Under the pieces are notes generated by a model, which saw only the letters and a list, made by a program, of their open reading frames with translations, was not told the origin of the DNA and did not search any database. A stretch of DNA of 55,163 nt, counting the filler, from Bipalium vagum (lineage: Eukaryota), in the NCBI GenBank assembly GCA_037834085.1. It is 3 parts of 3 records of this genome, joined end to end, with 100 filler letters (N's around TTAATTAATTAA, not from the genome) between each part and the next. Parts side by side here need not be neighbours in the genome. Positions count along the whole stretch, not along the records: positions 1 to 16,667 come from JBBMKC010099477.1; 2 more parts are not named here. One strand, given 5' to 3'. Position numbers and translations under genes: made by a program. Below, piece by piece: positions 1-31,040 of this stretch. Position 1 is the stretch's first letter. Each line of letters starts with the position of its first letter.

Positions 1-221
1 TAAATTTTTTTTATTTATTGTTGAGAAATATGGTCTCAAAAATTAGTTTATAATAAGTTGGATTTTGAACTTTACAACATAATATTTATATAGTTAAAAT
101 TAGGCCTGATAGACATAGATAATTTGAAATGAAATTATTGTTTCCATTAGGAATTTATGAGTAACTGGCTGTTTTGAATTTAATGAATTATTATAAATTT
201 TTAGTCACTAAATAAATAATT

Positions 222-633
222 TTAGTTATAAATAAAAGTTAGTAAACATGTTGTTTCAAATACATGTCCTACTGCCAACGCAACAGTGGCTATTTTAAGA
301 TCTCTGTTTCCGGGCCGGTTAATCTCTAAATCCGGAGACATTGATTGGCCCCCAGAATTAACAGTCCCTGGCTTTTTTCTATGGGAGTACTTGAGTATTA
401 TTATGGACCTCAAACAAAATATCCAGAAGGCTGTCCTAAATATTTCCCCGGAATTATGTGGAAACCTGATGGAAAATACTATGAAAAGAGCACGTAAGAG
501 TAAGGCATCCAGAGGATGTTATTTCCCATATGTAAATTTTGTATCTAAATAAATTATTACAGTAAGTCTCGTTTACATTTTTATAAAAAGATATTGTAAA
601 AATAAATCATCCAATAACTTATAGGTGACCCTG
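222..633 (+). mobile_element. Tc1/mariner transposase relic (3' part) with right terminus
   Basis: The translation GDIDWPPELTVPGFFLWEYL resembles the WPPRSPDLTPxDFFLWGYLK motif. The element ends in GGTGACCCTG followed by TA (634-635), typical of a Tc1/mariner end. Confidence 0.75.
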
Positions 634-639
634 TACTTA

Positions 640-1165
640 GGAGCTTTATTATTGTCAAACCATTGTTTCGGGCGTTTCCTCTATCGTTTCATAGAATTTA
701 TTTCTAGTCATATATCAAGATTCATTGAAGAAAAAGGTCACTTTTATTGCGCAAAACCAATGAAAGTCCCACTTCAAAACTGTGGATCCTTTGTTTTTCA
801 CTCAAGTGGTGCGACATCCACTTCTTCATTTTTTTACCTTTCCAATTTGATGAAAATGACAAACTACAATAATATGGTTGAGGTTGAGGTTTTCTTATAC
901 TTTTATGATTGATTTTGATGTATTAGCTTCGATTATCTTATCCAGCCGGTCATTGTCAATGTCGGATGTACGGCCATTACCTTCTGACATTCAAGAATCT
1001 CATCTCTCGGAGAAAATATTCATAACAAGGTTACATTATAAGATTACTAATGGTTCCTTGGCCATATATTTCATTGATTTTGCGAGCCTTCCCTGTGGTT
1101 TTGTGCTTAATTTTTTTTTACCTAAGCTCGTAGAAGAAAATTTTTTTAATTTGACTTCCATTTTC
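640..1165 (-). mobile_element. Degenerate mariner transposase (HTH to WVPHEL region)
   Basis: Frameshifted minus-strand pieces EGNGRTSDIDNDRL and HFHQIGKVK..(W)..HLSEKQK resemble mariner ERSGRPxEVDNDQL and HLKQIGKVKKLDKWVPHELS. Confidence 0.7.
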
Positions 1166-2546
1166 CGTTAAATAGTATCTAAAAAAATTATAAGTAATAA
1201 TCATTTTAAGTAATTTATTATAAAAAAAATACTTAATGAAAATAAGGTTTTAAAATCTATTAAGTTAAATAAATAAAAAACGGCATTAATTTTGCATCAG
1301 CTTAATGTTTTATTCTGTTTCTGAATTAATTTCTATGCATGAAAAAAATTCATTTAAATTTAAATCAGAAAGTCCAATAAATTATCTTTCATTTAATGTA
1401 TTTAATAAGCAACTTTCTTGTTATTTTATTTTCATTTAATTATTAGTTTTTTCTTAAATTTTGAAGATTAATTTAAAAAGATTTAACAAAATCCATTTAC
1501 TTAATATAAAGTTAAGTAAAAATAACAATAAATAAAAATCCCCTAAAAATTGTTTACGGTAATTATTTTTGTGATTGTGAAATAGATGAAAAGTAGTTTC
1601 AATCTTTTTGGACCATGTGAGATAGCCCTGAACACAGCATCTTCGAAACCACACCTCAACAATTCCGCAGTTCTTATCCTCAATCAAGAAAACTTTACAA
1701 ATAACACTTAATTTTCTATTGACAAATAACAAATGTATTTATTTAATTTTAAATAATTTTGTAATCGATAATAAAAGTTAATGATTATTTATTTATTTTA
1801 AATTTTTTACTGAAAATGTTTAATTATACGATTAATCCGTAATTTAAAACTCAATTTTATTCTTTTAGAGGTGACAAGTTTAAGTAAATATTAATAAATA
1901 TTTTTGATTGTTATTCAATAATGTTATTGGAAGTAAAATTCAAAAGTAGCGATAGACCTGTATGTTAACATTAGAAAATCTGTTAAATTAAATGAAACAG
2001 TTTTCGACATGCTTGGTAATGCAAAACTGGTCCTCTCTGAAGACCGGTTGTGAAAGAGGCATATTATATGATGTTGAAATAGCAATTTAAAACAAATGAT
2101 AGATTTAAAATGAGATATATAAAGTAAAATATATGACAAATTATTTATTTAATATTCAAAACAGTTTATTAACACATTGAATACCGGACCAATTATAGTC
2201 TTTGAAATTTTGGAAATATAATTAAACCTAAAGGTTATTTAATTTTCAGTTGAAACTATCCATATGTGCATTCCCTAAATGTCAGCAATATAACTATTAC
2301 TGTTAGAAAACCAGAATAATTTTTTCTGAGAGGCCGAATCACATATTTAACACAAAAAAGACCAAGACAAACGTTGCCAGTTTTAAGTTTCTAGCGTTTT
2401 AAACTGATTATCACAATTATATTTTTATTATTACGTTCAATTGAATTTTTTAACTTTATCAATATATTTAATCGATATATTTTTATATTAAAAATTAACT
2501 GATATTTCTATATCGAGTGTCTCAAGACTATAAAATATGAATTCTA

Positions 2547-4270
2547 ATGTCGGTTGAAGTGGATGATGTTTGGCTTTATGAATTGATTTTGAGTTATCTG
2601 AAAAAAATCGAAGAGGAGAGTCCAATTTTAATAAGGGAATCCCCTCATTTTACAAACGGAGATAGAAAAGTGATAATAGAATGGATTAATAAGCTGATCC
2701 GAATATTCAAGATCGGAATCGAAGCTCACCATTTGGCCGTTTTTTTGTTCGATTATTTTATCGCTGATCATCAAGCAGATCCCAAAGGTCTGTATTTAAT
2801 TGGAGCTGCATGTTTTTCCGTTGCATGTAAGCCGTATATTAATAAGTTCAGAGACAATGAGATTATTATTTTTCTTAGGTAAGGTCAATGATGTCGAAGT
2901 CAATGTTCCCCAGGCATCCAAAATTCTTAGGTTGGCACCTTTTGACAATGTTATGCAAAGCTATCTGCTAAAGTCAACTGAGATTCTTGTTTTACAAGTA
3001 AATTTTCAAAAATTAAATTTTTCTGTCCAAAAAAATTTTTCTAAGCATTTCAACTGGAATATTCACAAAACCACTGAAGCGTCATTTCTTGAGTATTATG
3101 GAGCATCGTGTTTGGCTGTTGAATTAGAATATGTTGAGGATATGGAATATGCTCATAGATTGGCAAGAGATTATGATAAATGGATCACGTATTTTAGAGA
3201 AAAAGTTTTATTAAGTAAAATTATTTAAAACTATTTTTTATAATTTTGTAAAATAAATTATTCAAAGATATTTGCTTCATGATTACGAGAGTATTGAGAA
3301 GTATTACATTTGATATCTTGAAATGAATCTTTAGAAAATTATTATTATTCAATTACACTAAAACGTATATAGTCATATTTTTCACTTGTCATTATTGTTT
3401 ATAAAAATCAAATCAAATGAAATCTATTAGAAATTATCATACAGAATGTTAATCTGTCTTTAAAAATATGGGTGTTAAATAAATCCTTTCCGATTTTTAA
3501 TATAATGTCATCAGAAATTTTATATTTACAGTTAAATAATAAATATTATATAGCTACATACAAATAGCAATTCCATTTATTCTTCAAAAATGTCACCTTT
3601 ATTGATGCAGATTTCAATACGTTTGGAAAAAATAAACTCAGTAAAATAAATTTCTGTTGATATTACATATTATAAAATCCGAAAGGACTTATTTAACACC
3701 TTTTAGAAATCTAAAAACCACTTGTTAGATCTTTTTCAGAAAGAAACTAGTGTGTCTGTTAATTTAATTGCTTAATTTTTAGTTTTTAAATTAATTTTTA
3801 ATTTTTTTGTTCAATTAATTTTTAATAAAATGTTAAGAAAAATTAGTACTTAGATCACACAAATAAAATAATTTTGTTGAAAAATTTTTGTTAACATGAG
3901 AGTTTTATTGCATTTTAGATCTGTCATTTTTCGATAAAAAAAATGTTATCATTATATATTTTGATATAATTTTTTCACGATAGATGACGAATTCCGTGAT
4001 CATAGACCATCAAAGGTTGCCAGCTCTATTGTTATATCCACTAGACTTTCAATGAATCTGGTTCCCGATTGGCCAGATTTCATGGTTCATTTAACTGGAT
4101 GGTATAAATCAGATTTGATTTTCATTATAAATAATTTAAGAAGGTATTTTTAATATTGTACATAAAAAGTAGCCTTTTATGTTTCATCTTTTTGTTCTGG
4201 ACATGATCTTAGAAATTAATTCTTAATTTCATTGATACTCTAGAAAATATTTTTGCCTATTTAAAATTTC

Positions 4271-4333
<63 letters not shown>

Positions 4334-5571
4334 CTTGATATTTTCAGTAATAAATTGAAGTCTTATAAAAATGACAAATGGCATATAATTAAAAATGTCA
4401 CTTAAGTAACAGTTTATATGTTTTAATAACACAAATTATCTACAGTAGTAGTACTATAGTAGTACATTATTTAAATTACATTTATAACCTCTCTTTGTGG
4501 CATGTCCTCGGATAAGAGACACCTCATTATCCGGAACAAATTCACTTATTCTTGTATTAAATATTCTTTAATAACTATTGGTCTAATAGAAAAAATATGA
4601 ACCTCAAATGCACCAAAATATTGTCAGTAATTGTAAGTATAATAATTATAATTTAAAACTGTACCATGAAGTTCCGCTGTACCATGCATTTGCTAAGGTA
4701 AAATTAACTCATGTGACTAAATACTTTTGACCGTAATTGTATTTAATTTTCAAAATTGCATTTAATATATATAATATAATTTGTTTTTAATATATCAAAA
4801 AAATATTTTTAAATTACTTAATAATTAATTACAATAAATAATAATTACGTACGATTAATTAAAATTGTAGCTTTTAATATTTATTATTTAAGCAAAATTT
4901 CATTTATAATTTACATTTTTGCTTTAATAATGCAAAAATATTTCAAAGTAATACAAAAAGTGCAAAAAATGCATTTGGTTGCCCTAGTAATAACATTTAT
5001 TTTTTGAAGAAATAAATAAATAAATGTAAATCATAAAATAAATTATATCCTGAGATTAAAAAGATTTCAGAAGCCTTTTATTTCAAATTACTTTGAGTAG
5101 AACAAGTTATTAAAATTTCATGTAAGTGTTTAAAATATATTAAGACCTTATTATTCTACAAAATGACTTTAATATGTGAAAATAAGACTAAATTTCAAAA
5201 TTAATTATCGCTTCCGAAATAAAATTAATTTAAGGTTTGTTTAAATGCATCATTTTTAAGAAAAATTAATCTGCTATAAAAAGATAATTTTGTTTAAAAT
5301 CATTTTCTTCTAAGAAACTAAATGAAATATTTACATCATAATAAATCAATTCACACTTCAATCACTGGCGTCATTTTTTTATCACTATAGTAAATATAAA
5401 AATTATATTGTATTTTTAAGACATTAAAATATCCCGATTTTTAATTTATACTTTGACTTATAATAATTCAGGTATATCCTAACCTATGGACTTGACATTC
5501 ATAAGACTTCATTTGTATTTGTGACTAAACTTTTTTTAGTTCGGGAGAAAATAATTTTCTTTCTCACTTAA
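2547..5571 (+). CDS. Cyclin J-like cyclin (5 exons, ~275 aa)
   Basis: Phase-consistent GT-AG exons: 2547-2826, 2879-2997, 3046-3214, 3984-4143, 5472-5571 (828 nt). Cyclin box DRKVIIEWI...AHHLAVFLFDYF...LYLIGAACFSVACK; TEILVLQHFNWNI..T.ASFLEYY; C-lobe HRPSKVASSIVISTRLSMNLVPDWPDFMVHLTGW. HLAVxLxD and the WPxxLxxLTxY-like motif are closest to cyclin J. The last exon is less certain. Confidence 0.8.
4273..4333. repeat. (TAT)n microsatellite
   Basis: About 20 perfect trinucleotide units in cyclin intron 4. Confidence 0.95.
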
Positions 5572-5743
5572 ATAAAAATAAATTTGTACGTTTACTTAAA
5601 ATAATTTCTGCTTTTCTCGATTTAAGTTTGTTTGCCTTTGATATACTAAAATAAATAAAAATGAAAATGGAATATAACTTAACTATTTTTAATACAATAT
5701 ATTTATTGAATATGTGGATAGTGACTTAAGATCAGATTTATTA

Positions 5744-6565
5744 ATGGAAAAGTATTCCGATTTAAACCAGTCGTTCAATAAACAACCGACCTTTCGTCAA
5801 CTCATGACTAACGCACAAAGATGCAATAGTAATGTGGATCCGGGAATTGGTAATGCTTCAATGGAAGACACATTTTTTCAATATAGATCTTCAAATATAA
5901 TTCATTCTGGAAATTCATCAAATGAAACTCTTCAGGCAGAAGTATTTGAAGTCCCTTCAAACTATTTTTTATCAAACACGTGTTTCAACAACAATCTAGA
6001 TTGTTCCCAAAATAATCCCTATCCAATGTTGTCTTCGTCTTATTTGTCTGTTGAAAAATCACATTCACAATCTCCGTTACTTAATTCTATTATGTTGGAT
6101 GACGATCTGAATCTTTCACTGTCTGGTACAAACAATCAATTACATTTGCAAAACACCATTCCATATGACCAACCAAAATCCATAGATAACTTCTCAACAG
6201 CTTGTGAACTTGGCCTGAAAATGCCTGAACATCAATATTTCTCAAATCTTTCGAATGTATTTCAAACATCATTAATGGAAAACCTGAATCCATCTATCAG
6301 TTATCCAAATACTGTTTCTACCTCAATCACCTCATCTTCAATATATGTAATTTTATCCCAAAAAGAAAAAAAACTTCAGTGTTACAATAAAAGTTCTCAA
6401 TCTTTGAACGATCAGCCCAATGCAATTTCATCACGACGATCGCAGACTTCTGATTCCATAATCTCAAATTGTGAAAGAAATGGGTATCGCTCATTAAGAA
6501 AACGAAGTCCAAGACTTATGGTCAATGTCAATGGTGGAGGATCATCACATTCGTTAAATTTCTAG
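5744..6565 (+). CDS. Ser/Asn-rich low-complexity ORF (273 aa from first ATG); either an alternative terminal exon of the cyclin or a separate single-exon gene
   Basis: An 850-bp stop-free frame with higher GC than its flanks, followed by AATAAA near 6700. There is an in-frame TAA at 5690-5692 and the first ATG is at 5744. No recognisable domain. Confidence 0.65.
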   Translation: MEKYSDLNQSFNKQPTFRQLMTNAQRCNSNVDPGIGNASMEDTFFQYRSSNIIHSGNSSNETLQAEVFEVPSNYFLSNTCFNNNLDCSQNNPYPMLSSSYLSVEKSHSQSPLLNSIMLDDDLNLSLSGTNNQLHLQNTIPYDQPKSIDNFSTACELGLKMPEHQYFSNLSNVFQTSLMENLNPSISYPNTVSTSITSSSIYVILSQKEKKLQCYNKSSQSLNDQPNAISSRRSQTSDSIISNCERNGYRSLRKRSPRLMVNVNGGGSSHSLNF

Positions 6566-7948
6566 TGAAAATATCAAACGTTACAATTGTTAAAGAATAA
6601 GAATTTTTTATTTTTCTTCTAAAATCACGTTAATGTTTACTAATCGGTATTGTTAATTGTTTGATCACAACATTTGTGACCATTGTACATTTTTCGTTAA
6701 AATAAAATTTGTTTATACATTTCATTTTTTAGATATTAAATTACAAAATAACTGGCGATTTAAATATATTTCCAGTGATTTAATTGGTTTACTCATTTGA
6801 ATTAAAATTACCACAAAAAATTGAAAGATATTGTGCCAAAATATCGAAAAATTACTCAAAGCAGCGATCTGAGAGGCTAAATGTGTGCAACACAATCGTC
6901 TAGTTGCTTCTAGAGCAAATCTTATATGAACATTAATTAATTTACGATTTATTAATTTTATCATTGTCACAAAATTAAAAAAGTTTTTCTTCGTTCTGAG
7001 TGATTTCAGATATTCTCATCTGCAGTTGTTTGTTTTCTGTTTTTGATTTTGTTCAACAATAACAAGAGTTATAACCAATATGGAAAGCATTGAGAATTTT
7101 CATCAAAAACATAATTATTAGCATATCTAACAAATGAAAAATATTAAAATTCAGAATCAGATAAATAGGAAAAAATCAATCTTTGGTACAGTATATCCTC
7201 CGTTCGATAATTATATTAATCTAAGATTTTCAAATATACTTTTTAAACAAAATTTAAGAGTTTTTAATCCTAACCATAATTTTAACAATAATTTTTCATC
7301 TTAACCATATTAAATCTTAATATTAAAACTTAATTTTTATTGGTCCATAGTGGCGCACTAACCAATGGGTGGATAGTATATTATACAAAGATAATATACC
7401 AAAAGCTCCGCAAATTCTGTCAATCATTTAACCTGATTAATTTACTAAACTTTAATAGAAAACATTAATCTAACTCAAATTAATATCTTTATTCTAAAGA
7501 ACCGGTCCTCAGAATTTTTAATATCAAAAATTCATTTAATAAAACTGCAACATTACTATTATTTAATAGCAAAGAATATAATATTCTGGTTTGGAATTCA
7601 TCCGATTTCTGTTAACTAATTCAGCTTGAAATTGTATCGAAAACTGATGACAATGTTCGATGAATCCATTGTAAATTATATCAAATAATTACATTAAATC
7701 AAAATATTTATAATTTCATTTAATACCAGTGAAAACCAAATCACTTAAAGTAAGCGCTTGAAGCACCAAAAATCAGCTCTTAACAAATTTTGAAAAATAT
7801 TATAAGAGTTGAAGATGTAAGGGCACATTAACAGTTAACGAAAAAAATAATATTGAGAAAATTAAAAAACCTGGAAATTTTTTTTACAAAGTCAAGAAAC
7901 ATGAACGAGTAATATATAATTACAAAATAAATAATGATCTGAAAAAAT

Positions 7949-10900
7949 TCAATCTTGCAATTTTAAGATCATTAAATTATCGATTATTGATTTTACTATA
8001 TTTTCCGTGAACCCTGTCGATCCAATCCCTATCAACTGATTTATCAGATCGGAACCTTTCAATGTAATTGACTGATATTGATTTATCAAATCATTGATTG
8101 AGTGAAAATTCGATAAATCATCAATAATATCGATTTTATCAAAATCTGCATAATCGATGATGAATATGGAAATTTCATACGTCAAATATGACGAAATCTG
8201 AGAACGAGATTGATTGAGCTGCTTCGTCACCAATTTTGATTGGATTTTTTGTCGTAAAATCGATAGATTTGTCTTCTCGTATTTCCGACAAATGTTTCGA
8301 ATCAAATTCCAAATTTCCACCAGGTTTTTCCTGTCTCGCCAAATCAATTCGTGTACTTTCAAAAGAACGAAATAAAAAGATATTTCACTCGTGTTTTCTA
8401 TTCGATCCACCCACTGTTTCCACCAATCGCAATCAGCCGAATTCTCATCATCCTCTGCCGATTCCAGAATCAAAGCATTGACGAAATTGAAAGCACATTG
8501 ATCTGCCAGTTGAAACTGACAATGTATGATCAGAGTTTTTATTGTTACCCAATTGGCCAACTTCGATGTTCTTCGATTCATGGAATCGATAAAACCCTGA
8601 TAATTGTGCAATTCCAAGTAACAAAGTGCGCACAATTCAAAACTGCCAATTTTGAAAAAATGATCTTTCAATTTGATTAATAATTCGCCAATCAAACCGT
8701 GATTTGGCGGCAATCGAAGTTTAGCCATCACAAGAGCTTCTCGGAAGCATTCGTTCTTTAGCAGAACATTAACAGCGTGCTCTGAATCCGACAAAGCTAG
8801 GCAATATGTGGCCGCCAAAACTGGATCATTTTTGTTTGTCAAGATGTTGCTGACGATCATATCAATCAGATCTTTCGGAATATCGTGCGATGTGTACGCA
8901 AAAATAATCATCATTAGCCAATCAGGACAGTACTTCATCGAGATCGATTCGCGAACAACTTGACCGATTTTCCCCACCCAGATCAATAAGAGAAAATAAT
9001 TTTCCAGATTTCCGTCTTTTTTCAGATTTTCTAGTTCGACTGAGATTTGCTTCAAAATAGCCGCCCGAGAATCCAAAAGTGACAGACAAGGTAAATAATC
9101 GATCTTGTTTTCAACGAAATTTAAAACTCCATTCTGGTACGTTTCCAGGCCGTGGTGAACATTGAAAATCGTTGTCGGAAATAGACTGTTTCGTTTCTTG
9201 ATGAATTTCTGAGCAGCTTTCTTTTGATTCCCGAAATCTAATTCAACATCAGTTTTTATTCGTTTCTTTTTATCGAGATTATTTCGCATCTTTTCCTCTT
9301 CATCATTCTTCTTTTCTTTCTCATCACCGTTTCCAACGACAGTTGTCGATTGATCGATTTCCTCCACAATTTCCGACGCTTTATGACCTTGAACATTGAC
9401 TCCCGGTAGAAAAGGAGCTAGATTACGTCTTTTGTTGAGATCCCGGTGCAACCTCTGTTCCGAAGGGCGCCACACAAAAAGGTTCGAGTCTTCACCACCG
9501 GAATAGATGAGATCGGGATCCCGGTTGCTCCATTTGCAGCACAAAACCCGTCCCTGGTGACACGTGAAGCTGACAACTGCCGCATTATCTGTAATGCTCC
9601 AAATGAAAACGGTGTGATCATATGATGAACTGGCAAGTTTGTTCATGTCCATTGTGCACCAATCAACACAGGTGATCCGGTCCCCGTGACCTTTGAACTT
9701 GGCCAGAGTCTCGTTGAACTCTACGATTCCCCAATTCGACTGTCTTTTGTCACTACTCATGACAACGGTCGTTTCGAACTTGGTGATCACTGATTCGAAA
9801 TCAGTAACGGTAAGGAACCGTTCATTTGATCCGACAGCCAGTCGATAACGATTTCCAGATGGACACCATTTCATGCAATTGATTCCTTTCGTATGGGTCC
9901 TAATCTGACATACCTGCATGAGTGGGTTTCGGTCAGTTTTCATGGCAAAAATCATCACGACACCGTTGCTATAGCCAACAGCAAAATATCGCATGGATCC
10001 GTGCATCACAAAGTCGCAAATCTTCTTTGAATCAGCTGAACCACCTATATCACTGACGTTCTCCAAATCGTTAACCAGATAAGGTGTGACATCACAGAAT
10101 TCATTGCGACGAAAATCATGGAGAAGCAATGCATTGCTTCCCACCGTGTAGACGACCAGGTCATCGTGTTCCTCGTCACCAAGGCCACTAGTGTCACTGG
10201 TATCTATCTTCCATTTGACTTTTACACTTCGACGGATATCCTTTCCCCATGTCGTGATAAAAACTTTGGACTTGTGCAATAACTTTGACGGAGTCGCAAT
10301 CTTTTTGTCGCCACGGGCAACGTTGACGCAACCAACTTCACCGTTATCAGTACCGAATGCCAAAACACCTTCACGAGATGGATGCCAGCTGATTGATAAA
10401 ACTTTTCCGTTTACCCCGTTCCAAATATTGGTCGATTCATACGTGTTACTCTGGTGAACGGACCCGGACGGTGTCATTTTCTGTCGCCAAAGACGAATCA
10501 TGTCAGCACAGCCAATAGCCAATTGGTTACTGTGATCGACAGAGTCCATGCTCAAAACCGATCCTCCTAGACACGGAATGGAATAAATATATTCTCCATC
10601 ACCACCCTGGGTCGTTATTCGGGACACATTCAGCATCCTGTCCAGGCTGTGAGACAACAAAATTCCGTCACGGTTTTCGAATTCTACAATGCCGAAAATA
10701 GATTTCGAGTGCGATTTCGTAAAGCTGTTCTGGCTAAAATACTTGATATCAGCTGATGTTGGAGACTTCAATACACCGAGATTACCAAATGCCGTTGTCA
10801 CAATCAACGTACCATTGTTGACTGGTGACCAGTGAAGTGTCAGCCAATTCGAATTTGTATTGATTGATGTGTCCTTTTCATTGGACCCTTCTAGACTGCT

Positions 10901-11758
10901 ACAATTGACTTTGGCTGGCATAGTGATCGTTTTTAAATTGAAATTCTTTTCCACACGCCACAGTTTGATTCGACGATCTTTGCCCGACGTTGCTAAATCG
11001 CCCCACAATTCCAAATTGGTCTCAATCGGATTCCATGCCACACTGCACACATCGGAATTATGGGCCCTGAATTGTGTCTGTTTGGAAATGGAATCGAATT
11101 GGTTCCAAAGAAAGATCACAATCACGCCTTTTTTATGGGATACCGCAAATCTGTTTTTATTCCATGCTATTTGCACAATATCTTCCGTAACACCGGTATA
11201 AAATGATTTCTGTGGAGAGTACTCATGTTCCAGATAATTCCATGACAAAAATACTCCTTTTTCAAATCCACACGTGATATTATTAAATTTACTGATAGAA
11301 ATACATGTAGGTAATCCGCTGATTTTTGTGGTGCTCAAATTAAACTCTTTCAGACAACAACATATATTGTCAATATTGTTATTTTCTATTTCATTAAATG
11401 ACCAAATACGAATCATCTTGTCTTTACCGCAAGATGCAAATCGTGGTATTATAGACATCCCATTGAATTTCATGTAAATTCCATTTGGTATCGTACATAA
11501 ACCAGTAATATACTCATGATGGGCTTTCATGTAGTAGTAGATCTTAGTATCAAAAGAATTTCGGTGTGACTTATTATCATCCAAAATAATTTGAGACGTA
11601 TTTTGGTTTTCAAGCAACTTAATAAAATATATGTGAGTTCGTGAACCGTAATAAAAGATCCCGAATTTTTCATCGTGATTCCACTCAAATGTGTCCATGA
11701 TACTAGAGACGTACCACATTGGGGAATTTATTAAGGCAGAATAAATAGGAAGAGCCAT
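7949..11758 (-). CDS. GEMIN5: Gemin5-like (rigor mortis-like) WD40 + TPR-like protein, single exon, 1269 aa
   Basis: Multiple WD40 repeats (AHHEYITGL...SCGKDKMIRIW; AHNSDVCSVAW...TSGKDRRIKLW; GHGDRITCVDW...SSSYDHTVFIW; HQGRVLCCKW...IYSGGEDSNLFVW). Gemin5-typical WHPSREGVLAFGTDNGEVG and a TPR-like AVNVLLKNECFREALVMAKLRLP...ALCYL. The first in-frame ATG (MALPIYSALINSPMWY) is at 11758; the ORF-track start at 11851 is a GTG in AT-rich UTR. Confidence 0.85.
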   Translation of the reverse strand: MALPIYSALINSPMWYVSSIMDTFEWNHDEKFGIFYYGSRTHIYFIKLLENQNTSQIILDDNKSHRNSFDTKIYYYMKAHHEYITGLCTIPNGIYMKFNGMSIIPRFASCGKDKMIRIWSFNEIENNNIDNICCCLKEFNLSTTKISGLPTCISISKFNNITCGFEKGVFLSWNYLEHEYSPQKSFYTGVTEDIVQIAWNKNRFAVSHKKGVIVIFLWNQFDSISKQTQFRAHNSDVCSVAWNPIETNLELWGDLATSGKDRRIKLWRVEKNFNLKTITMPAKVNCSSLEGSNEKDTSINTNSNWLTLHWSPVNNGTLIVTTAFGNLGVLKSPTSADIKYFSQNSFTKSHSKSIFGIVEFENRDGILLSHSLDRMLNVSRITTQGGDGEYIYSIPCLGGSVLSMDSVDHSNQLAIGCADMIRLWRQKMTPSGSVHQSNTYESTNIWNGVNGKVLSISWHPSREGVLAFGTDNGEVGCVNVARGDKKIATPSKLLHKSKVFITTWGKDIRRSVKVKWKIDTSDTSGLGDEEHDDLVVYTVGSNALLLHDFRRNEFCDVTPYLVNDLENVSDIGGSADSKKICDFVMHGSMRYFAVGYSNGVVMIFAMKTDRNPLMQVCQIRTHTKGINCMKWCPSGNRYRLAVGSNERFLTVTDFESVITKFETTVVMSSDKRQSNWGIVEFNETLAKFKGHGDRITCVDWCTMDMNKLASSSYDHTVFIWSITDNAAVVSFTCHQGRVLCCKWSNRDPDLIYSGGEDSNLFVWRPSEQRLHRDLNKRRNLAPFLPGVNVQGHKASEIVEEIDQSTTVVGNGDEKEKKNDEEEKMRNNLDKKKRIKTDVELDFGNQKKAAQKFIKKRNSLFPTTIFNVHHGLETYQNGVLNFVENKIDYLPCLSLLDSRAAILKQISVELENLKKDGNLENYFLLLIWVGKIGQVVRESISMKYCPDWLMMIIFAYTSHDIPKDLIDMIVSNILTNKNDPVLAATYCLALSDSEHAVNVLLKNECFREALVMAKLRLPPNHGLIGELLIKLKDHFFKIGSFELCALCYLELHNYQGFIDSMNRRTSKLANWVTIKTLIIHCQFQLADQCAFNFVNALILESAEDDENSADCDWWKQWVDRIENTSEISFYFVLLKVHELIWRDRKNLVEIWNLIRNICRKYEKTNLSILRQKIQSKLVTKQLNQSRSQISSYLTYEISIFIIDYADFDKIDIIDDLSNFHSINDLINQYQSITLKGSDLINQLIGIGSTGFTENIVKSIIDNLMILKLQD

Positions 11759-12020
11759 AATAAACTGAAATATATTGTATTTTAGAAATATAAAAATTAA
11801 TTTATCAAATATTAAAATATCATGTTTTAAACTAATTACTGAAAACTTCACTAAAACAAAATAATTAAATAAAACTAATTTTTATAATATTATAATTAAG
11901 AATGTAATTAGAAGAAAATTAATCTACTTAACAAACTCTTTGAAATGATCGTAATTCATATACTTAGTAATTAATTTTTAAAATTTTAATAATGACAATA
12001 GAAATAATTATTAGTATATA

Positions 12021-14430
12021 CGTACAGTCAAGATCATAATCATTTTTCGCAAAAACTTTATCAACTTTTCTTATCACTGCTTGGAGATTTGTTTTTAAGT
12101 ACGGGCTTTCAATTTTTATTGATTCAGAATTTTTAATTGATTTCACCAAAACATTTATTGAATCTGCAATTGGCTCACTTTCCAACTCAACTACTTTTCC
12201 CAATCTAGTTTTTGAATAAAAACTCTTCTTTTTGCTCAAAATTCAACAGCCGAATTGGTATTCTCCCTTCTCTGACGTACTACCTCTTCTTGAGCACCGT
12301 ATATCCATAATAATTCCTTTGAGAAGTCGAAGCATAGAGTTCCTTTATATCCTACTGGTGCATTTACAAAATACACTGTTTCTACTCTTCCTGTAATTGT
12401 AATAGTTTCTGACAAGACTACTTCGTTATCTGCATGTCACTTCCGACCTTTTCCTCTGACAGTTATTAATTGTCCTATTACTAAATCAAAAACTACTTCT
12501 TCTAACTGTGACAGAATATCCATTCCTACTAAGCTGTCATATGGGCAGTTCTCCATTATCCAATTGCTTGCCTCCAATTTCCAGTAGACAAACAACTTTT
12601 CCTTTAAACAGTACATATTCCATAGTTAACGTTTGTGTTGATCCTTTAAGTAATAATTTACTCTTTTCCTTTTGATTTAAAACTGTTTCATTAATGATTG
12701 ACACTGAAGCTTCCGAATCCAATAGTTATGTCATTGGTCTTCCATTTACCAGGAGTTGTATAAAGCTTTTTCCTTCAGTTCTGACTACATTGACTTGATC
12801 CTTATATACTGGTATGCCTAGTATTGCTGCTCGGTCTTCATACAATTCCTTTTTTGAATTTTCGTGAACTTGCGCTTCTACATACATCGGCTTTGAACAT
12901 ACTTCATCATAGGCTTCTGGTAATTCTGGATATATCTGTACCCGTGTTGGAATATTTGGCAACTGTTTCCTTATATATGGTGGTGTAGATGGTTGATTTT
13001 TCTTTAATGACGAGTATTTACTGTTTTTCCTTGGTCTTTTAGTTCATTGTGTTTTACTTGAAAATATTCCGGACTCCCCTTCTGAATGAGAAGATGAATT
13101 ATCACTTTCATTTTCTTTATCGAGCTCCTCGATTGTTTCCATTTTCACTTTCTGGTATTGATCATCTGCAAATATTTTCTTTTTCAATCTGGATAACTCT
13201 ATACCATGATGATGAATTATAACAAACTTCGCTAAAAACGGTATGTACGCTGCTATTAATCTCCATATAAATCCAACAGTTCTGTATAATTGAGAAAGTG
13301 CCCATTGTGTAAATCCCAATTAATGGTAAAATGAAAACGAATCCACATCGAGAAAACTTGGAGCAACAAATCCCAATATCCAACAGTTAAAGAAAAAATG
13401 TATTAGAACAGCAATCAAATGGAGCAGTCGATGCTGGCAAGCCCACAACAACAGCGGGTATATTTAGAAGATGCCAGTCAGAAGAATAGAAAGAAGCTGA
13501 AAATTGTGAAGCGCCTTAGGCTCTCACTTTAATTTTGTTTTTGTTGTGTTAAGTTCCTAAAAAGATGGTTGATTTTAAAAGACTTAGCTTGGGGCTTTTA
13601 GGTTACTTAACAAAGTCTGTGCTATCAGAAGGGTTTACGGATGAACGTTGTAGCACTAAATATTCACTGACACTCGATAAAAAGTCGATCAAAAAATAAA
13701 CTAAAAGAACACAGCTTTTAAACAAAATCTTTATTGAGAAATGAATTCTTTGACAAATTTTTAATTACAAGGGTTGATAAGATTTTGGGCTGACTTATCA
13801 GAATCTTTAAACACAGGCTTAGCCTAGTGTGTTAAAGCCATCAGGAAGTTTACCAGCTAGCGGCTGTGTAAACTTTAAACAAAAAAGGAAGAAATGGTGA
13901 AGCACCGAGTAATTATTTATAAGAAGAATTAATTAAAAGTTTAGGTCAATCGGTTAAACTTGGATTAGATATATAAATAAGATTTTTAAAGAATAATATT
14001 TAATTCAATACTTCTGTGCTCACAGAGTATGAATCTTGTAATGTTTAAGGTTAATAATATTAATAATAATACTAGAAATAATATCAATAATGTGAATTAC
14101 CAGTTAATTGAAATCTTTGAATTCCTTAGTTTGTTGACCTTGTGGCTGAAATAATCTCGTCTTAAATACCTATGCTGTGGAATGTCGAATTATGTTAATT
14201 TGGTTCCACGATAATTATTCTGGAATGTTCGAAATCTGATCAAGATGATATGTCTTACGTCATTCTATCGGCTATTGGAATTTGTTTTCGACAACGATCT
14301 TTCCGTGTTTAGCTATGAATTCGACTAATTAGTTCTGCCTTCTATTATTCGTTTCTTGAGATTTTTATGCTCGTCTGTCGCGTGAATTTATTGTTGGGTC
14401 TCCCTTTATGCTCTTGGGTAAGCCTTTTTA
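12021..14430 (-). mobile_element. Truncated, decayed Ty3/gypsy-type LTR retrotransposon (LTR-like region + 5' pol with aspartic protease)
   Basis: ORFs 13044-13319, 12726-12962 and 12537-12722 are one frame broken by single stops. It contains retropepsin FIQLLVNGRPMT*LLDSEASVSII (DSGAS motif decayed). After a frameshift come YDSLVGMDIL and then LQAVIRKVDKVFAKNDYDLDCT, the pre-RT signature of gypsy pol, cut at ~12021. The upstream ~13530-14430 region is LTR-like, with TATAAA at 13916-13921 and AATAAA at 13730-13735 on the minus strand. Boundaries are approximate. Confidence 0.8.
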
Positions 14431-14689
14431 TATTATTTATTTTTTATGCATTTTTATTTTTAGTAATATGTAATTTCTTTTTTTAGAAATTACTATACTT
14501 TTATTTATCTAAAAACTATTTTTAACAACCTATATAATTTTATTTCTATTGTTTTCTATTTTTAGTAGTGTTTATTTTTTATTTTTTTATATAAATTCTT
14601 TATTGTTTTACTAATAATGATTTATAATTAATAATAACAATAATAATTATTATTATTATTTAATAGAGAATTTTCTGACAGTCAGCTAT

Positions 14690-15720
14690 AAATCTTTACA
14701 TGACCAAAATAAAAAATAAAATCAATATGTTTATTAACAATAAAATTATGATCACTAAATGTTTGTTCAAAGTTTAAATGTTTATTTTGGGATGCTCCAC
14801 AGTTGTAATAAATAAATGTTTCCCCCTTGTGGGGATTAGTAAACAAAATTTTGTTGTTATGCCAAAAATACTTTATTTTCCCTATCATTCCATATTTCGT
14901 AGTCACTTTTTCTAGAGTGAGCTGATCTTTCAAAGCCTTCTAAACATTCTCTATCGAATTCATGTCAGTCCAAAAGTAGATTTTTTTGCATTGAAATATT
15001 TTTGAATTACATTAGCTCTGTGACAAAGTGTTCCATCATGCATGAACTGAAATCGTTGACGACCAGGCAACCAAATTCGTAATTGAAGCCATAATTAATT
15101 TTGGAGCACTTGCAGGTACTGCTGCGAATTCATGTTATCAACCACAAAAAAGTTTTCAAACCCCTTTCGTAGATCTAATGGACCATTTTGTTACTTGGAT
15201 CGGATGCTTAACCTTTTGGCTTACATATTCAGTTAAGTATCTTTCATTTGACTGAAGACGAACAATACAATGTACTGTCTTTTTTTAATGAATAATACTG
15301 TCATTCTTAAAAAGGATTGAACTTTCATCCGAGAAGCAAACATGACGTAAGAAATCAAACCGAGTAAATGAAAACCATTTTGTAGAAATTAATTTTTATT
15401 TAATTTTGACCAAAGTGTGTTTCGGTAGTGTTTGTATTTGAGTTCCCAAGTTGGTCTTTTCTTTATCATGGCCGGTGTTAATTATGCTTTATGGTTGGCG
15501 GTGAACAATAATGTTTATTTTTCTCAGCCGTCGTTGCACAGTCCTCACCTAAACATTTAAAACTGAAGACACAATGTCAGATGTATTTCTTTGATGGGTT
15601 TCTTTCGAAGTCGTAAAGTATTGCTTATTATTGTTCTGTCGTCTCTAGCAGTTGTTTTTCAAGCTGGTCCTTGAAACTGAGACTTTAGACTCTGTCCATT
15701 TTTAATCTTTTTTTATTCAT
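14690..15720 (-). mobile_element. Degenerate Tc1-family transposon
   Basis: Minus-strand fragments RHVCFSDES (first catalytic D), HDGTLCHRA (second D region) and a decayed DMNSIENV (DLNPIEN). Many frameshifts. Confidence 0.75.
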
Positions 15721-16065
15721 TTTTGATAGCAGACTGATAAAATAAATTTCTAATATATCTCACCTTGAGTCATCGTTGTTTCTTCCAATAGCACTTTAAG
15801 TTGAAATATTATGCATTCGGAAAGTGCTTATTTTCTTCCCATTTTAACAATATTACCAATAACCTTAATAAGTGTAAATAAATAAAGGTAAAAGTGACTG
15901 CGAAATGTAAAATGATTGAGAAAATAAAGTATTAGTGGCATAAAAAAAATTTTCAATAGACAGTCATAAATTCTGTCAAAAGCATGCAAGCAAGAGTCAA
16001 TTTCTTCTTAAAAAAAAGGAAATGTGGACCAAATATTAATTTCTTTTGTGTAATCGATATATATA

Positions 16066-16667
16066 TAGTAACCGCTCGATATAAGCAATAAAATGAACCA
16101 AATAAATTTCTTATATCGAATTTTTATTTTTGAATAAAAAGACACGTATAAAACTAGAAATTAATATTTTTTCACTACAGCCTTCTCTCGAATTCTAGGC
16201 AACAAAAGCATCTCATTGATCGAGATATTATTATTTTCACCCCATTCTATAATAGTATTGAATGAGTTAATAACATTGTCCGTACTTTTCTTTATGTCAT
16301 CGCCCATTTTGTTTATTTCTTCATCGTCAGTTTCTGTGATTGATTTCATGGTTTTATCATGAGACCCTTCAGCCCAGTCTGAGATTTCATTATCTGTAAT
16401 TACACTATCTCCGAAAATGGGCTTTTTACTTTTTTTAATCTTTTCCCTAATTCAGAATTTTGTGTGCCTTTCATTCGTTTCATTAAAGTCGTAGCTTTCA
16501 AATTAGTCGACACAAAAGTATGAATAGTTCCATTATTAATTTTGATTCTAGATAATGTTGATGCATTGATAGAATATTTTTTACATTTTACGTTTGGCTT
16601 GTTCCCACTTTCAATCTCTTTTAAAATTGATAATTTGTCTTGCATAGAAATAGAGCTCCGTTTATTT
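16066..16667 (-). mobile_element. Internally deleted pogo/Tigger element, cut by assembly gap
   Basis: MQDKLSILKEIESG...KKYSINASTLSRIK is an HTH-psq/CENP-B N-terminal domain, followed by an acidic C-terminal piece (ITDNEISDWAE...ETDDEE). The terminus TAGTAACCGCTCGATATAAG with internal inverted CTTATATCGA is Tigger-like. Confidence 0.75.
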
Positions 16668-25499: not shown

Positions 25500-28400
25500 T
25501 TTAAAGTCCTCAAAAATGAGCCCAGTGATGGAGTTTTTTAAAAAAATTACTAGCTTTCTCATATTTTCAGTAAAATCCTGTTTCTGAAGGTATTTTTTAT
25601 CCAATAATATTAATTTTAAATTAAAAGTAAAAATATACATAAATTTTTGTGCAAATTGAAAGAAATTAAACATTAAAAAGAAAATAAGATATTAACATAA
25701 TTTATTTATTCATTTTAATTTAAAACGATACTTAATATGACAGAAAGCACATTAAAATTTCTTTTTAATTTATAAATAAAATTTTGTAGTTAATAGGAAT
25801 TAATTTAATAAATTAATGAAGTCTATGTGATCAATTATGTTTTTTGTAAAAAAATCTAATTTCAAATTAAAATTCTATTCTATATTAATTTAATATTACT
25901 TGTTAAAGTTAAAATAACCAATATTTTAATTTAAGAAAAAATTAATCATGCATTGATCTCGGCTTTCTATAATATATTTTGTGAATAATTTTGAGCTTTC
26001 AATTTTTTTGATTCAGAACCAATCACGGCTTTTTTGGTCATTATCAAAACAATTGATTTACTAAAGAGAATTCATTTTCATTCGAACATTTCCTTTCTCT
26101 AAAATTCACAGTGAGATCAATTGTTTTGTCCATTCTCCTTTTTTGATTGTCAAAATTTGACTTGAATATCGTCTCTCTTCTACACACAAGACTAAATTCA
26201 AGTAAGTAAACAAAATTAAATTGCGTTACTTTCTTATTGCGCTAATTTCTTATTTACAAAAAAAATCGTAAACAGGTCTTAAAATTTGATGTAGAAATTG
26301 GATAAAAATTTGCGAACTATCGTTTTTAATAGAAAACAGTAAACAAAATTGAAAATATCTAACATGACATTGTTGAAAATTTTTTGTAAAAAAACTATAA
26401 GCTTAATGCCAGGCTTGTAATAATTGTGCTCATCGTCTTTTTCACATTCTAATTTTTTTTTTGAAGTTTCTCTTCATTCATTGAAATGAAACAATTTTCA
26501 CTTTTCCGGGGCCTTTTGAACAACTAAAAAAGAGCACGTCCAACTGCTGACTTAAAAACCAACAATCGGAAGCAAATTTCAATAAAAAATTGAAAGGAAA
26601 ATTGCAAATTTTCATAACAACCAATTATTAAAGGCAATAATATTTTCAGAGAAAGTTTTACAAGCCAATTAAAAAAAATATCTAAAATGGCAGTCAAAGC
26701 CCTAAGCTTTGTAATATGCACAAAACCTAAATTATAAAAAACCTTAAATTGGTAACTTTGTGAATTTTACAGTAAAACGATTTTGTATAACAATAATTCC
26801 CGAAAATTTTGATTGCATAATTTTCACACAGAAAAAGAATTTCCATAGGGTTTCATGGTCTTAACATTTTGAATTACAAATCGTTTACAATTCCGATGCA
26901 GACATTAAAGTATTATTATCCAAATATTTACAATTTGTAACATTTATCAATATTTCACCGCAAATAAAATTTCGCGCAATTCGTCTTGGATCTTTCGATA
27001 CCTTATCAATACAATAAAAAAATTCGCAGAATTTTACATTCACATCAAAAATTTTAATTAAAGTTTTTACTCCATAAAGTCTTCAGATCTACCAATGTTT
27101 TTTGATAAAAATAAAAATCAATCATTTAATTAATTGATTGCTTAATTACCAAATAAAAATAATAATTAAAAAAATTAAATGTATTTTATTAAAAATTAAA
27201 AATTTAAAAATAAATAAGATTTAAATAGATTTTTAAAACTTATTTTCACGGAAACTGTACTTAATAATAAAATTTTTAAAATGAAAAACTAACAGCTCTC
27301 TTCCGATTCCTGATTGCTTATAGCCACCAAATGGAGCATGGATCAAGCCGGCATCATAACAATTCACCCTGAAATATATTCTCAATCAATGTCACTATGC
27401 ATTTTCAACGAATAATTCCCAACCAAACAGAACCCGCTTGCAGCGCCTGAATCATCATAAAGGCCTTATTGAGATCTGAGGTGATAACTCCAGCGCCTAA
27501 ACCATATGTCGATTTATTGGCTCTATCAATTACTTCGTCCATTGTAGAGAACTTGAATACCGATTGAACTGGACCAAAAATTTCTTCCTTAGCAATTCTC
27601 ATTGTGTCCTTTACATCACTAAACACGGTCGGTTGCACAAAATAACCACATCTATCCAGTCTTTGACCACCGGTCACTAATTTGGCACCTTCCTTCTTGC
27701 CACTTTCAATTAGATCCATAATCTTGTCCATCTGTTCCTTATCAACCTTTAAAAAAAGTAAAACAGTTTTTGGTTCTGTCATTTATTAGTCCAATCTTGT
27801 TCCAACCTGCGGACCCTGAACCGTTTTTTCATCAAAAGGATCACCAACAATTCGACTTTCAGCAAGACGTTTCAATTTATCGACAAATGTATCATAAATC
27901 TTGTCTTCAACAAACGTCCTCGTGCCTGCAACACAACATTGGCCGTGATTTGCCATGCAAGCCTCATGTGCTATTTCTGCAGCTTTGTCCACTGTGAAAA
28001 GTATTAATATTTTTCATAATCATTAATGAGAAAATTAAAACGTACAATCATGAGCATCGGCAAAAACTATCAGAGCCGATTTGCCTCCCAATTCCAAAGT
28101 GACTCTTTTTATCGAGCTCTCACCCATACCTTTTAAGATCAAATGCCCGACTTCTGTACTTCCAGTGAAAGATATTTTATGGACATCTGGATGTTTCACA
28201 AGAGCACCTCCGGCAGTAGGGCCATATCCAGGTACAATGTTTACAACGCCTTTTGGAAATCCTGGACAAGACTCAGATGAAAAGTTATTATATTTATCCA
28301 GACTTTTTGAGTCGATTTAATATAAAAATGATTGATAATAAATGTAGACTTAATAAACAGAGTTTTACAAGTATTTTATTATTCGAAAATAAAAATGAGT

Positions 28401-31040
28401 AATTTTCAAAACGTGAACCTTTCATTTATAATAATTCATAATGAATAACTTATTTCTATTTGTTCTACATTATATTTGAAAGTATGGAATGTTTTAAAAA
28501 AACAGCATTTTAAAAAATTCTGAAAATTGAAATTGCACAACTTCTTGAGGAAGATAAACGTTATCCATTATAGGAACCTCAGGTCTTACTAATTTCGGCA
28601 TAAGTTCAGTATACCGAATCGTGTCTGATAAACTTTTTTTAAAGTGCGTCCATACAAGGTGGGTTCCTCATAGATTAACAAAATCTCAAAAGATCCAATT
28701 ATCACAAAATTTGCTTAGAAATCTGAAAATTCCTACTGTGGTCGTAATAACATTTCATACTAGATAGCGGCAGATGGTGAGCGATCAGCAATTGTCAGAA
28801 GAACAATATTAAACATGAAATTTCATATAATTGTTGTTTACAACTTTTTGGTGATTTCCGCTTGAAAGATTTAAGGCGTAACCAATTCATTAATTCTAAA
28901 CGTTGTATTATTTCTTTCAAACGATTTTGGATATCAAAAGAATTTAAATTTTAGACTTCATATGTGACAATATTTGTTACCACGTAGATGCCATGAGATA
29001 GTCTTCTAAAAAACATGGGACTAAAATTCTAAGACAACAACTTTAAAATCCAGAATTGAATTTTAGCAAATATTAATTCTCTCTATGAATGTAGCAAATT
29101 TCATGCAAAGTAAAATGACAAAATCGTATAAATATGTAATTCATTTTTAATCTGTAGAGGGCCTTGTTTGTGCTGAAAAAGTTTTTAACTGATTTAATTT
29201 AAGTAGATCATAATAATTAAGTATTTTTAATAATAAAAGTCACAAGTTGTGAGAAACTAATGGACCTGTCAGATTAAAATGATCAAAGAAAACCATAGAT
29301 TCCGTTATAATATTTTACAATAAATTTTAAAAACAAATAATAATTATTATTATTTTTATTATCATTATAATTATTATTCAAATAATCAATAATTTTTAAA
29401 ATAACCATACTGGTTCAATTCATATATTAAAGTTTTATAGGAAAAATCTTTATTATAAAATCCTCAAAAAGAGTATTATTTTTAATTGAAATGTTGTTTA
29501 TATTAAAATATATAAATAAATTATTATCTCTGAATTTGTGATATCTTATACTTGATTATGGTCCTGACCATGGAAAGTCTAAAACAGCAATACAACAGGA
29601 GTAGATGTTAGCTTATATTATGTTAAATCTGGTATGTTAAGAAAAAAAATCATTTATTATGAACTTCTGTGCAATAAAAAGATCGATCATAATCTACTAT
29701 ATATTGTGATCAGTTAACAAAGTAAAAGTAAGAGATTGAAAAAACTAGACTAAAATTGATAACCGGATGATCATTGTGCCCCAATTTTTGATCGCACTAG
29801 TTTTTAAAGTTCCGATAAAGATTGAACAAGTTAACCATTTATTTAGATCTCTGCACAACTCTTTCAATGTGATAAGATTCAATTCTATATTGGACTGTAA
29901 AGAATTATTCTGAGTTCTGCATTCTCCGTGTACCTTTAACACACATCCACATTCAAAGTCCTACGAAACTATTTTCGTACATTTTCCTGCTATTTTAATT
30001 GATCTGTTCTTATTACTTTTTCAAATTTCCGTTATTTTTGTCGTCGTTTCTTGAGAATTGTTATTCCTTAGCATGTTCTATTCACTTGGCTCTGGTATTT
30101 GACTGTTTCCCGTATTTTCCTCTACATCAATTCTTATACGGTACAATTTTCAATATTATACTGTACAAAATTCAATAAAGTTTTCAATCATGGAATGAAA
30201 GTAGCAAAAAACTATAGATGTATAAGATGCATTACTACTCTTAATATATCAATTTTCAATGTTTTTATAAATTATGTAAAAACTTTTCCCCGTTCGATAT
30301 TTATAATAATTTTAATGTAAAAATTATTAAAAATAAGTTGCTTTATAAACTAATTTTATAATCATAATGGAAATTTAACCGGCTTTTACAATAAGATCCC
30401 CCAAAAACAGAGCTGACAAAGGTGTCTGTTCTGCAGGTTTGATGACCAATGTACAGCCAGCTGCAAGAGCAGGAGCAACTTTCCAAATAGCAATCATGAA
30501 CGGGTAATTCCACGGTATGATTGCTCCGACAACTCCGACTGGTTCCATTCGAGTATAGCACACAAAATCCCCATCAGGTGACGTCGTCATTCCGGTGATT
30601 TTATCCGCATAACCGGCATAAAATCGCGTAACGACGACGGAAAATTCGATATCACCTCCTGCCATAACATAAGATTTTCCATTGTCTAAAGCGTCAAGTC
30701 GAGCAAGGTAGTCTTTATTTTCTTCAATGAGATCTGCCAATTTGTTCAGCAGTGCCCCTCGTTTAGAAGCATCCATGCAACGCCATTCTGATCCAATTTT
30801 GAAAGCTTTTTTGGCTGCTTTGACTGCTTTGTCAATGTCCTTTTCTCGACCCTCTTGAATTTTGATGATCTCCTTTTCCGTAGCCGGATTAATTGTGGAA
30901 AACGTTGCCTTTTCCGCACTATCGTGCCACTCGTTGTTAATGAAAATCTGATCAAGTTAAAATGAAATGATAACGAACTTGGAAAGTTGTCGAAAAATTG
31001 AATTGCTTACTTTTGTGAATTTGACTTCTGGAATCGACAT
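24535..31040 (-). CDS. Aldehyde dehydrogenase, ALDH1/2 family (7 exons, 489 aa, no mitochondrial presequence)
   Basis: Phase-consistent GT-AG exons 31040-31011, 30947-30380, 28261-28046, 27991-27807, 27746-27424, 27368-27294, 24607-24535 total 1470 nt. Motifs: [22 protein letters not shown], catalytic Glu in TLELGGK, catalytic Cys in [28 protein letters not shown]-terminus [16 protein letters not shown]. Confidence 0.95.
25438..25498. repeat. (AAT)n microsatellite
   Basis: About 20 perfect units in the last ALDH intron. Confidence 0.95.
28420..29270 (+). mobile_element. Decayed mariner in ALDH intron 2
   Basis: [21 protein letters not shown] and RWVPHRLT (WVPHEL-like) fragments; otherwise heavily mutated. 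Confidence 0.65.

Follow-up and report, generated by a model that had tools for sequence, protein, structure and literature searches.

Genomic context of the locus

The window analysed here is a stretch of 55,163 nucleotides, filler included, from the genome of Bipalium vagum (assembly GCA_037834085.1). It is composed of three joined stretches, positions 1–16667 corresponding to JBBMKC010099477.1 with unchanged coordinates. The features recognised are collected in Table 1. Outside the gypsy element lies a Gemin5-like host gene, the first methionine of which is found 255 bp from the end of the gypsy fragment. Fragment, LINE end and solo LTR are located directly upstream of this methionine and might affect the promoter, and the long open frame of the gene sits in an AT-rich animal genome. 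On the minus strand at about 14856–15650 motifs are found which we take to be those of a decayed Tc1/mariner-like transposase remnant; five short pieces of this region yielded no transposase match in Pfam.

Table 1. Features of the window, and second predicted glycoproteins in sister copies elsewhere in the genome.
Feature	Position	Strand	Evidence or remark
Open frame, 290 codons	5693–6565	+	no Pfam family
Gemin5-like WD40/TPR host gene, one open frame	7949–11758	-	PF23774 TPR_GEMI5, E 3.7e-29
PR-RT spacer	12013–12479	-	frameshift near 12276
Dead retropepsin (ends approximate)	12480–12769	-	catalytic motif altered, stop just ahead of it, frameshift near 12559
Env cytoplasmic tail and charged Ser/Pro-rich linker	12770–13214	-	one stop, 13046–13044
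gB-like Env membrane-end remnant	13215–13324	-	sister copies, PF24664, helix scores
3' end of ORF and start of 3' UTR, R2-like (restriction-like endonuclease) non-LTR retrotransposon	13323–13546	+	copies, RT match
Solo LTR within the LINE 3' UTR (1255 bp, TG...CA; a different high-copy LTR family)	13547–14801	.	copies, target duplication
Rest of LINE 3' UTR	14802–14855	+	directly continues 13323–13546 in six of seven LINE copies
Aldehyde dehydrogenase gene exons (second stretch)	27405–30956	-	PF00171
Open frame, 227 codons	39687–40370	+	no Pfam family
Second predicted glycoprotein	L131:963–2165	+	in frame after integrase
Second predicted glycoprotein	L147:1058–2197	-	in frame after integrase
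Second predicted glycoprotein	L133:435–1601	+	in frame after integrase

The first-pass annotation had described positions 12021–13530 as a gypsy-like element with a hydrophobic membrane-like segment in the place of Gag, fused in frame to the protease. The underlying observations stand: the quoted peptides share one minus-strand frame (LLLWAC starting at 13454, AKFVII ending at 13215, VNGRP at 12749), this frame contains stops at 13322–13320, 13046–13044, and 12728–12726, neither a capsid nor a zinc knuckle is seen in 12021–13530, and the LTR starts at 13547, about 800 bp from the protease. What did not stand is the reading as one gene, the frame being that of a chimera. It also shifts within the protease (Table 1), and the hydrophobic pieces of the window itself gave nothing beyond chance level against Pfam.

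A junction of two elements

When the genome was searched with positions 13050–13520 (130 candidates, 40 scored), 31 other places matched only the half below about 13290, eight only the half above about 13320, and none both. A query of 106 bases across the junction was matched over its whole length at the window locus only (one of four candidates). The two pieces, one from a LINE and one from a gypsy element, meet with a 2-base overlap at 13324–13323, and their shared codon register is due to chance. The join of hydrophobic stretch and protease, on which the annotation was built, is thus confined to the window locus.

Seven of the eight upper-half places were fetched and are 79–82% identical to 13323–13552. 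In these LINE copies a sense frame runs on upstream on the plus strand as the C-terminal end of a non-LTR ORF, and therefore the first 44 residues of the hydrophobic stretch (LLLWAC...FSFYH, antisense of 13454–13323) are an antisense LINE reading. Motifs further upstream in the same frame are presumably endonuclease-like. The reverse transcriptase of one copy had R2 structures as its best match (E 8e-22), and a zinc-knuckle piece of another copy gave a weak R2 match (E 0.009). R2-like non-LTR retrotransposons are accordingly the source of the antisense hydrophobic stretch, and only about 280 bases of their 3' end are kept in the window. The antisense frame is stop-free over 196 codons in one LINE copy and contains stops in most others. 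In a codon-position test of the LINE sense frame against the antisense hydrophobic frame, differences fell mostly on third positions (88 versus 34 and 30), a result which cannot tell the two frames apart because both share third positions.

A reading of the LTR as the 5' LTR of the gypsy element itself was rejected. It is flanked by a 4-bp target duplication (13543–13546 and 14802–14805), and in five further copies of its family, checked after a search with 1288 candidates of which 40 were scored, the ends are the same and the target duplication is exact in three and has one mismatch in two. Its sequence yielded no match to 30 Gag-side loci or to the post-integrase stretches of the Env family, the shared 5' start of which is a different sequence. 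As this solo LTR is foreign and sits inside the LINE 3' UTR, its spacing of 800 bases to the protease carries no information on the layout of the gypsy family.

On the other side of the junction, positions 13324 to 12013 are 86–90% identical to sister copies of a gypsy family and stop just before the RT domain, leaving the window without an RT for the gypsy element. The piece begins in the membrane end of an envelope protein: PF24664 positions 464–633 match the same Env region of a sister copy with E 3e-23. In the window the first, membrane-spanning helix of this Env is cut by the junction, with most of it lost, and what remains is put out of frame by a deletion near 13306. A second, amphipathic helix is retained in frame at 13304–13215 and bears an in-frame deletion near 13290. 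From the tail to the protease the frame is open in four of the 16 loci matched, and PF13975 recognised the protease of a sister copy with E 4.5e-7. Gag, Env ectodomain and the true membrane helix have been lost from the window copy. Most of the hydrophobic stretch thus proved to be noncoding or out of frame, comprising the 44 antisense residues and an out-of-frame remnant of the Env helix ('LGFTQ'), and only the second, amphipathic helix survives in frame. The window copy is non-coding debris, unable to make a membrane-anchored Pol.

With high confidence we regard the window as containing, at one locus only, the antisense 3' end of a LINE joined to a decayed Env-tail/protease piece of a Ty3/gypsy family, the overlapping copies of which imply one Gag-Env-Pol polyprotein. 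The junction lies between two repeats in a very fragmented assembly (272,664 contigs), and 13324 might be an assembly error joining a LINE copy to a gypsy copy, in which case the description of the family would stand and the chimera would be absent from the animal. This is improbable. Locus-specific changes are borne by both sides of the junction, two short deletions private to the window copy lie within 40 bases of it, the flanking pieces match contigs of one sequencing run letter for letter at similar depth (23–33), and nearby nested insertions, which have a target duplication, are intact. The stretch is present in one run (share 0.42, kind not recorded), with no RNA run listed for it; the contigs of this run leave 13246–13341 uncovered and none bridges 13324. 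Since a hole in coverage proves nothing, the reads speak neither for nor against the junction. For a genuine join, the history of the locus may have been that a LINE landed in or beside an old gypsy copy, or that a later deletion fused both at the 2-base overlap, whereby Gag and Env ectodomain would have been removed, and that the solo LTR of another family inserted afterwards into the LINE 3' UTR.

Domain order and reading frame of the gypsy family

From the sister copies the order of domains could be read as Gag with four zinc knuckles, a SUMO-like domain, a Bcl-2-like domain, a signal peptide, a gB-like fusion protein, a membrane helix, and PR-RT-RH-IN. The capsid-like domain was assigned by its atlas similarity of 0.94 to Retrotrans_gag clusters (129 of 256 features shared) and had no match in Pfam or PDB sequences; the zinc knuckles matched PF00098 with E 5e-12. 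The SUMO-like (best E 0.1) and Bcl-2-like (E 0.004) domains are weak, the latter ranking behind a designed helical protein (E 1.5e-4). Upstream of the equivalent of position 13324 the sister copies encode a signal peptide, observed in five copies, and an ectodomain rich in cysteine. Matches to PF24664, the Monjiviricetes fusion glycoprotein, were obtained with six pieces of four sister copies, at E values from 2e-9 to 3e-23. An Env of a sister family, 33–50% identical to the pieces of this family, was folded together with 65 relatives and gave a model with a pLDDT of 86, which matched herpesvirus gB with E 2.6e-15 among 122 matches at E 0.001 or better. Going by sequence, elements with gB-type envelopes are abundant in the Bipalium vagum genome, a search with PF24664 having returned 86 matches, all over cut-off, from 68 scored out of 1562 candidates. 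A word-index protein search with the Env membrane end found nothing. The sister family itself (L070, L076, L080, L081) shows the order Env-PR-ankyrin repeats-second PR-RT, its protease being duplicated.

In one sister copy PR, RT and the integrase zinc finger are found in order with RNase H in between. The best PDB match of the RT was Ty3 RT with E 3e-50, compared to 3e-31 for a caulimovirus-type and 2e-18 for the foamy virus enzyme, no BEL/Pao reference being included in this comparison. The Pol order PR-RT-RNase H-integrase, the Ty3/gypsy-type RT, and a Gag with capsid and nucleocapsid place the family in Ty3/gypsy (Metaviridae), and its class III (gB-like) fusion protein, which has a signal peptide and a membrane helix and is located between gag and pol, is that of GAG-ENV-POL elements. 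Seven Gag-side copies have a common 5' start about 1 kb before Gag, most of them beginning with TG; the 1.6 kb following integrase did not extend as far as a 3' LTR. In L021:1824–5400, upstream of Gag, no family match over cut-off was obtained, and from its motifs we take this stretch to resemble a Maverick/Polinton remnant.

The two hydrophobic helices at the end of Env were compared using hydrophobicity scales. The first proved to be the better membrane span in all 18 relatives scored, one of 19 sequences having been dropped for want of the anchor motif and two pairs having identical stretches. A second membrane span formed by the amphipathic helix, which would place Pol in the lumen, was rejected by these scores.

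In the fragmented assembly no single copy has an unbroken frame between Gag and integrase. Natural copies do provide stop-free pieces, each from a single copy, that overlap at every junction from capsid to RNase H and on through integrase, the shortest overlaps comprising 15 to 27 residues, and each junction from capsid to the second glycoprotein described below is open in at least one natural copy. At the ten junctions probed, one to five of 6 to 32 matched loci were open, the others showing stops, frameshifts or partial cover. By this overlap of natural stop-free pieces a single ORF would extend in this family from Gag as far as integrase. Natural stop-free frames of 929–1054 codons, leading from Env through the membrane region into a protease, are found in four other elements of the genome. 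The Env membrane end has 280 relatives in the database; 12 were scanned, nine of which have Env and protease in one protein and four of these also RT; two further cluster members carry Env, PR, RT, RNase H, and integrase in one protein. Several protease-like repeats per polyprotein are seen in the relatives P0009 and P0152, the latter with 4844 residues and ankyrin and C2H2 domains. Another one, HBK71150.1 (P0012), is a 2627-residue Env-PR-RT-IN polyprotein that came from a metagenome bin and is recorded as a hypothetical protein of Flavobacteriaceae; it is probably due to animal DNA in that bin. A continuous gag-env-pro-pol ORF reportedly occurs in nematode endogenous retroviruses.

Most loci are broken at any given junction, and the PR-RT spacer is out of frame in five of eight stretches, the window included. 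The order Gag-Env-Pol might therefore be true without one ORF, if Pol or Env were made by way of programmed frameshifting, readthrough or splicing and decay had obscured the site concerned. This is very improbable: the five stretches show more than one kind of shift, the spacer is open in two copies of the family and in a close subfamily copy, and the database relatives are each one protein, the longest with 4844 residues. Moreover, Burro (GYPSM1), a group of planarian gypsy-like LTR retrotransposons, is described as having one ORF in which gag and pol are separated by an in-frame Env (Arkhipova and Yushenova 2019, PMC6431247). The overlapping open pieces, the open elements, and the single-protein relatives together make a programmed stop or frameshift in the family unlikely.

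The sister copies also bear on the two alternatives offered by the first-pass annotation. Deletion of Gag from this copy was borne out, since capsid-like domain and CCHC knuckles are found upstream in copies of the same family. The other alternative, a family with Pol anchored to the membrane, was correct in that PR and Pol follow a membrane helix in frame, which would tie Pol to the membrane through Env. It was mistaken in that this helix belongs to a gB-like Env lying between Gag and Pol, the family being neither Gag-less nor supplied with Gag from elsewhere. A Gag-less family with a new N-terminal hydrophobic domain and Gag provided from elsewhere, for which speak a frame with no breaks other than point stops as far as the protease and an antisense LINE stretch with the score of a passable membrane span, close to the scores of true Env helices, is largely refuted and hardly credible any more, as no second copy has the join, Env and Gag precede the protease in sister copies, the LTR is foreign, most LINE copies carry stops in the antisense frame, and the window copy contains three stops and frameshifts.

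A second predicted glycoprotein and the proposed working of the family

In sister copies the frame continues past integrase to a second signal peptide, a cysteine-containing head of about 135 residues, a Thr-rich stalk, a membrane helix, and a short tail, as predicted for a type I glycoprotein (Table 1). A search with the head gave 116 matches among 150 scored candidates, falling into tiers of about 80–95%, 50–60%, and 30% identity, and six pieces of the most distant tier have the head in frame with the integrase end. Five database relatives, picked for extending past integrase, likewise have a signal-like segment followed by a later hydrophobic segment. The head had no match in Pfam, PDB or, by word-index search, the protein database. 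Its atlas similarity to C-type lectins is 0.92 (139 of 256 features), and a model, at a poor pLDDT of 41, is all-beta; no Pfam lectin matched in 21 members of the head family and no lectin was matched in PDB. A C-type lectin-like head is hinted at by these data and may serve as a lead only.

Applying established ER translocation rules to the anatomy of the family, that is, to the domain order, frames and junctions found and to the Env fold class as seen in the sister-family Env, the following layout may be proposed. Gag with its capsid and four zinc knuckles and the SUMO-like and Bcl-2-like domains would be made in the cytosol, until an internal signal peptide directs the gB-like ectodomain into the ER. 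Transfer would be stopped by the first hydrophobic helix, the second helix would lie on the inner membrane face, and PR, RT, RNase H, and integrase would be back in the cytosol, tied to the Env tail until freed by the protease. The second signal peptide after integrase would then start the second type I glycoprotein with its small head, stalk and membrane helix, which would partner the fusion protein by providing attachment. The precursor would be cut by host signal peptidase and by the protease of the element. Gag, Env, and Pol would be produced in equal numbers and come together at one membrane. The attachment role assigned here to the second glycoprotein is derived from its predicted topology and position. 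That the family encodes a two-glycoprotein entry apparatus in one polyprotein, with a fusion protein of gB type placed between Gag and Pol and, after integrase, an attachment protein that evolves fast and is possibly lectin-like, the enzymes reaching particles on the Env tail and not as a Gag-Pol fusion, is put forward tentatively, with somewhat less than an even chance of being correct.

Relation to known elements and implications

An Env in frame between gag and pol is already published (PMC6431247, PMC13524379). The SUMO-like and BCL2-like domains which precede Env in Burro have candidate counterparts in the family, placed in the right order and with consistent but weak matches, and ankyrin repeats occur in the sister family of the Bipalium vagum genome. 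The family is more compact, with about 3,300 codons by summed domain spans versus 4,873–5,140 amino acids in Burro, and the MATH, BIR, and ankyrin cargo of Burro was found in none of the family pieces scanned. Four knuckles and the second predicted glycoprotein are further features of the family, the latter going unmentioned in the section on Burro in PMC6431247. As giant size and cargo of this kind were not found, the family works like Burro and is not filed as Burro, the comparison being with the published description.

GAG-ENV-POL 'ancient errantiviruses' with an HSV/gB-type ENV have been reported from Nematoda, Bryozoa, and Platyhelminthes, including six Schmidtea mediterranea families (Chary and Hayashi, eLife 2026, PMC13524379). 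They resemble the present family in their Ty3/gypsy Pol, gB-type Env, and Gag-Env-Pol order, but are intact where the window copy is a dead fragment. The main text of that paper has no passage with 'polyprotein', 'single ORF', 'ankyrin', 'accessory' or 'attachment', and a post-integrase glycoprotein is not described there. Metavirus-type nematode endogenous retroviruses, which belong to another host group, have env before pol, between gag and protease (Sacco et al. 2022 as cited in PMC13524379). A second glycoprotein after integrase was not found in the published literature as far as consulted; figures or other supplements of PMC13524379, Grohme 2018, and Sacco 2022 may describe it.

The 'hydrophobic domain in place of Gag' matters little, being the join of two dead elements, and calls for caution, as antisense frames of AT-rich LINE ends resemble membrane segments. 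With the family, a class of Gag-Env-Pol elements already described gains a further compact, Burro-like member. Its predicted second glycoprotein stays in frame across three subfamilies, at identities as low as about 30%, and is paralleled in five database relatives. It would matter if it were the receptor-binding partner of the gB-like protein, as it would then bear on how gB-type retroelement envelopes find their target cells. If the proposal is true, the family would amount to a retrovirus-like agent that follows the polyprotein plan of an alphavirus or flavivirus and keeps fusion apart from receptor binding, as herpes- and paramyxoviruses do.
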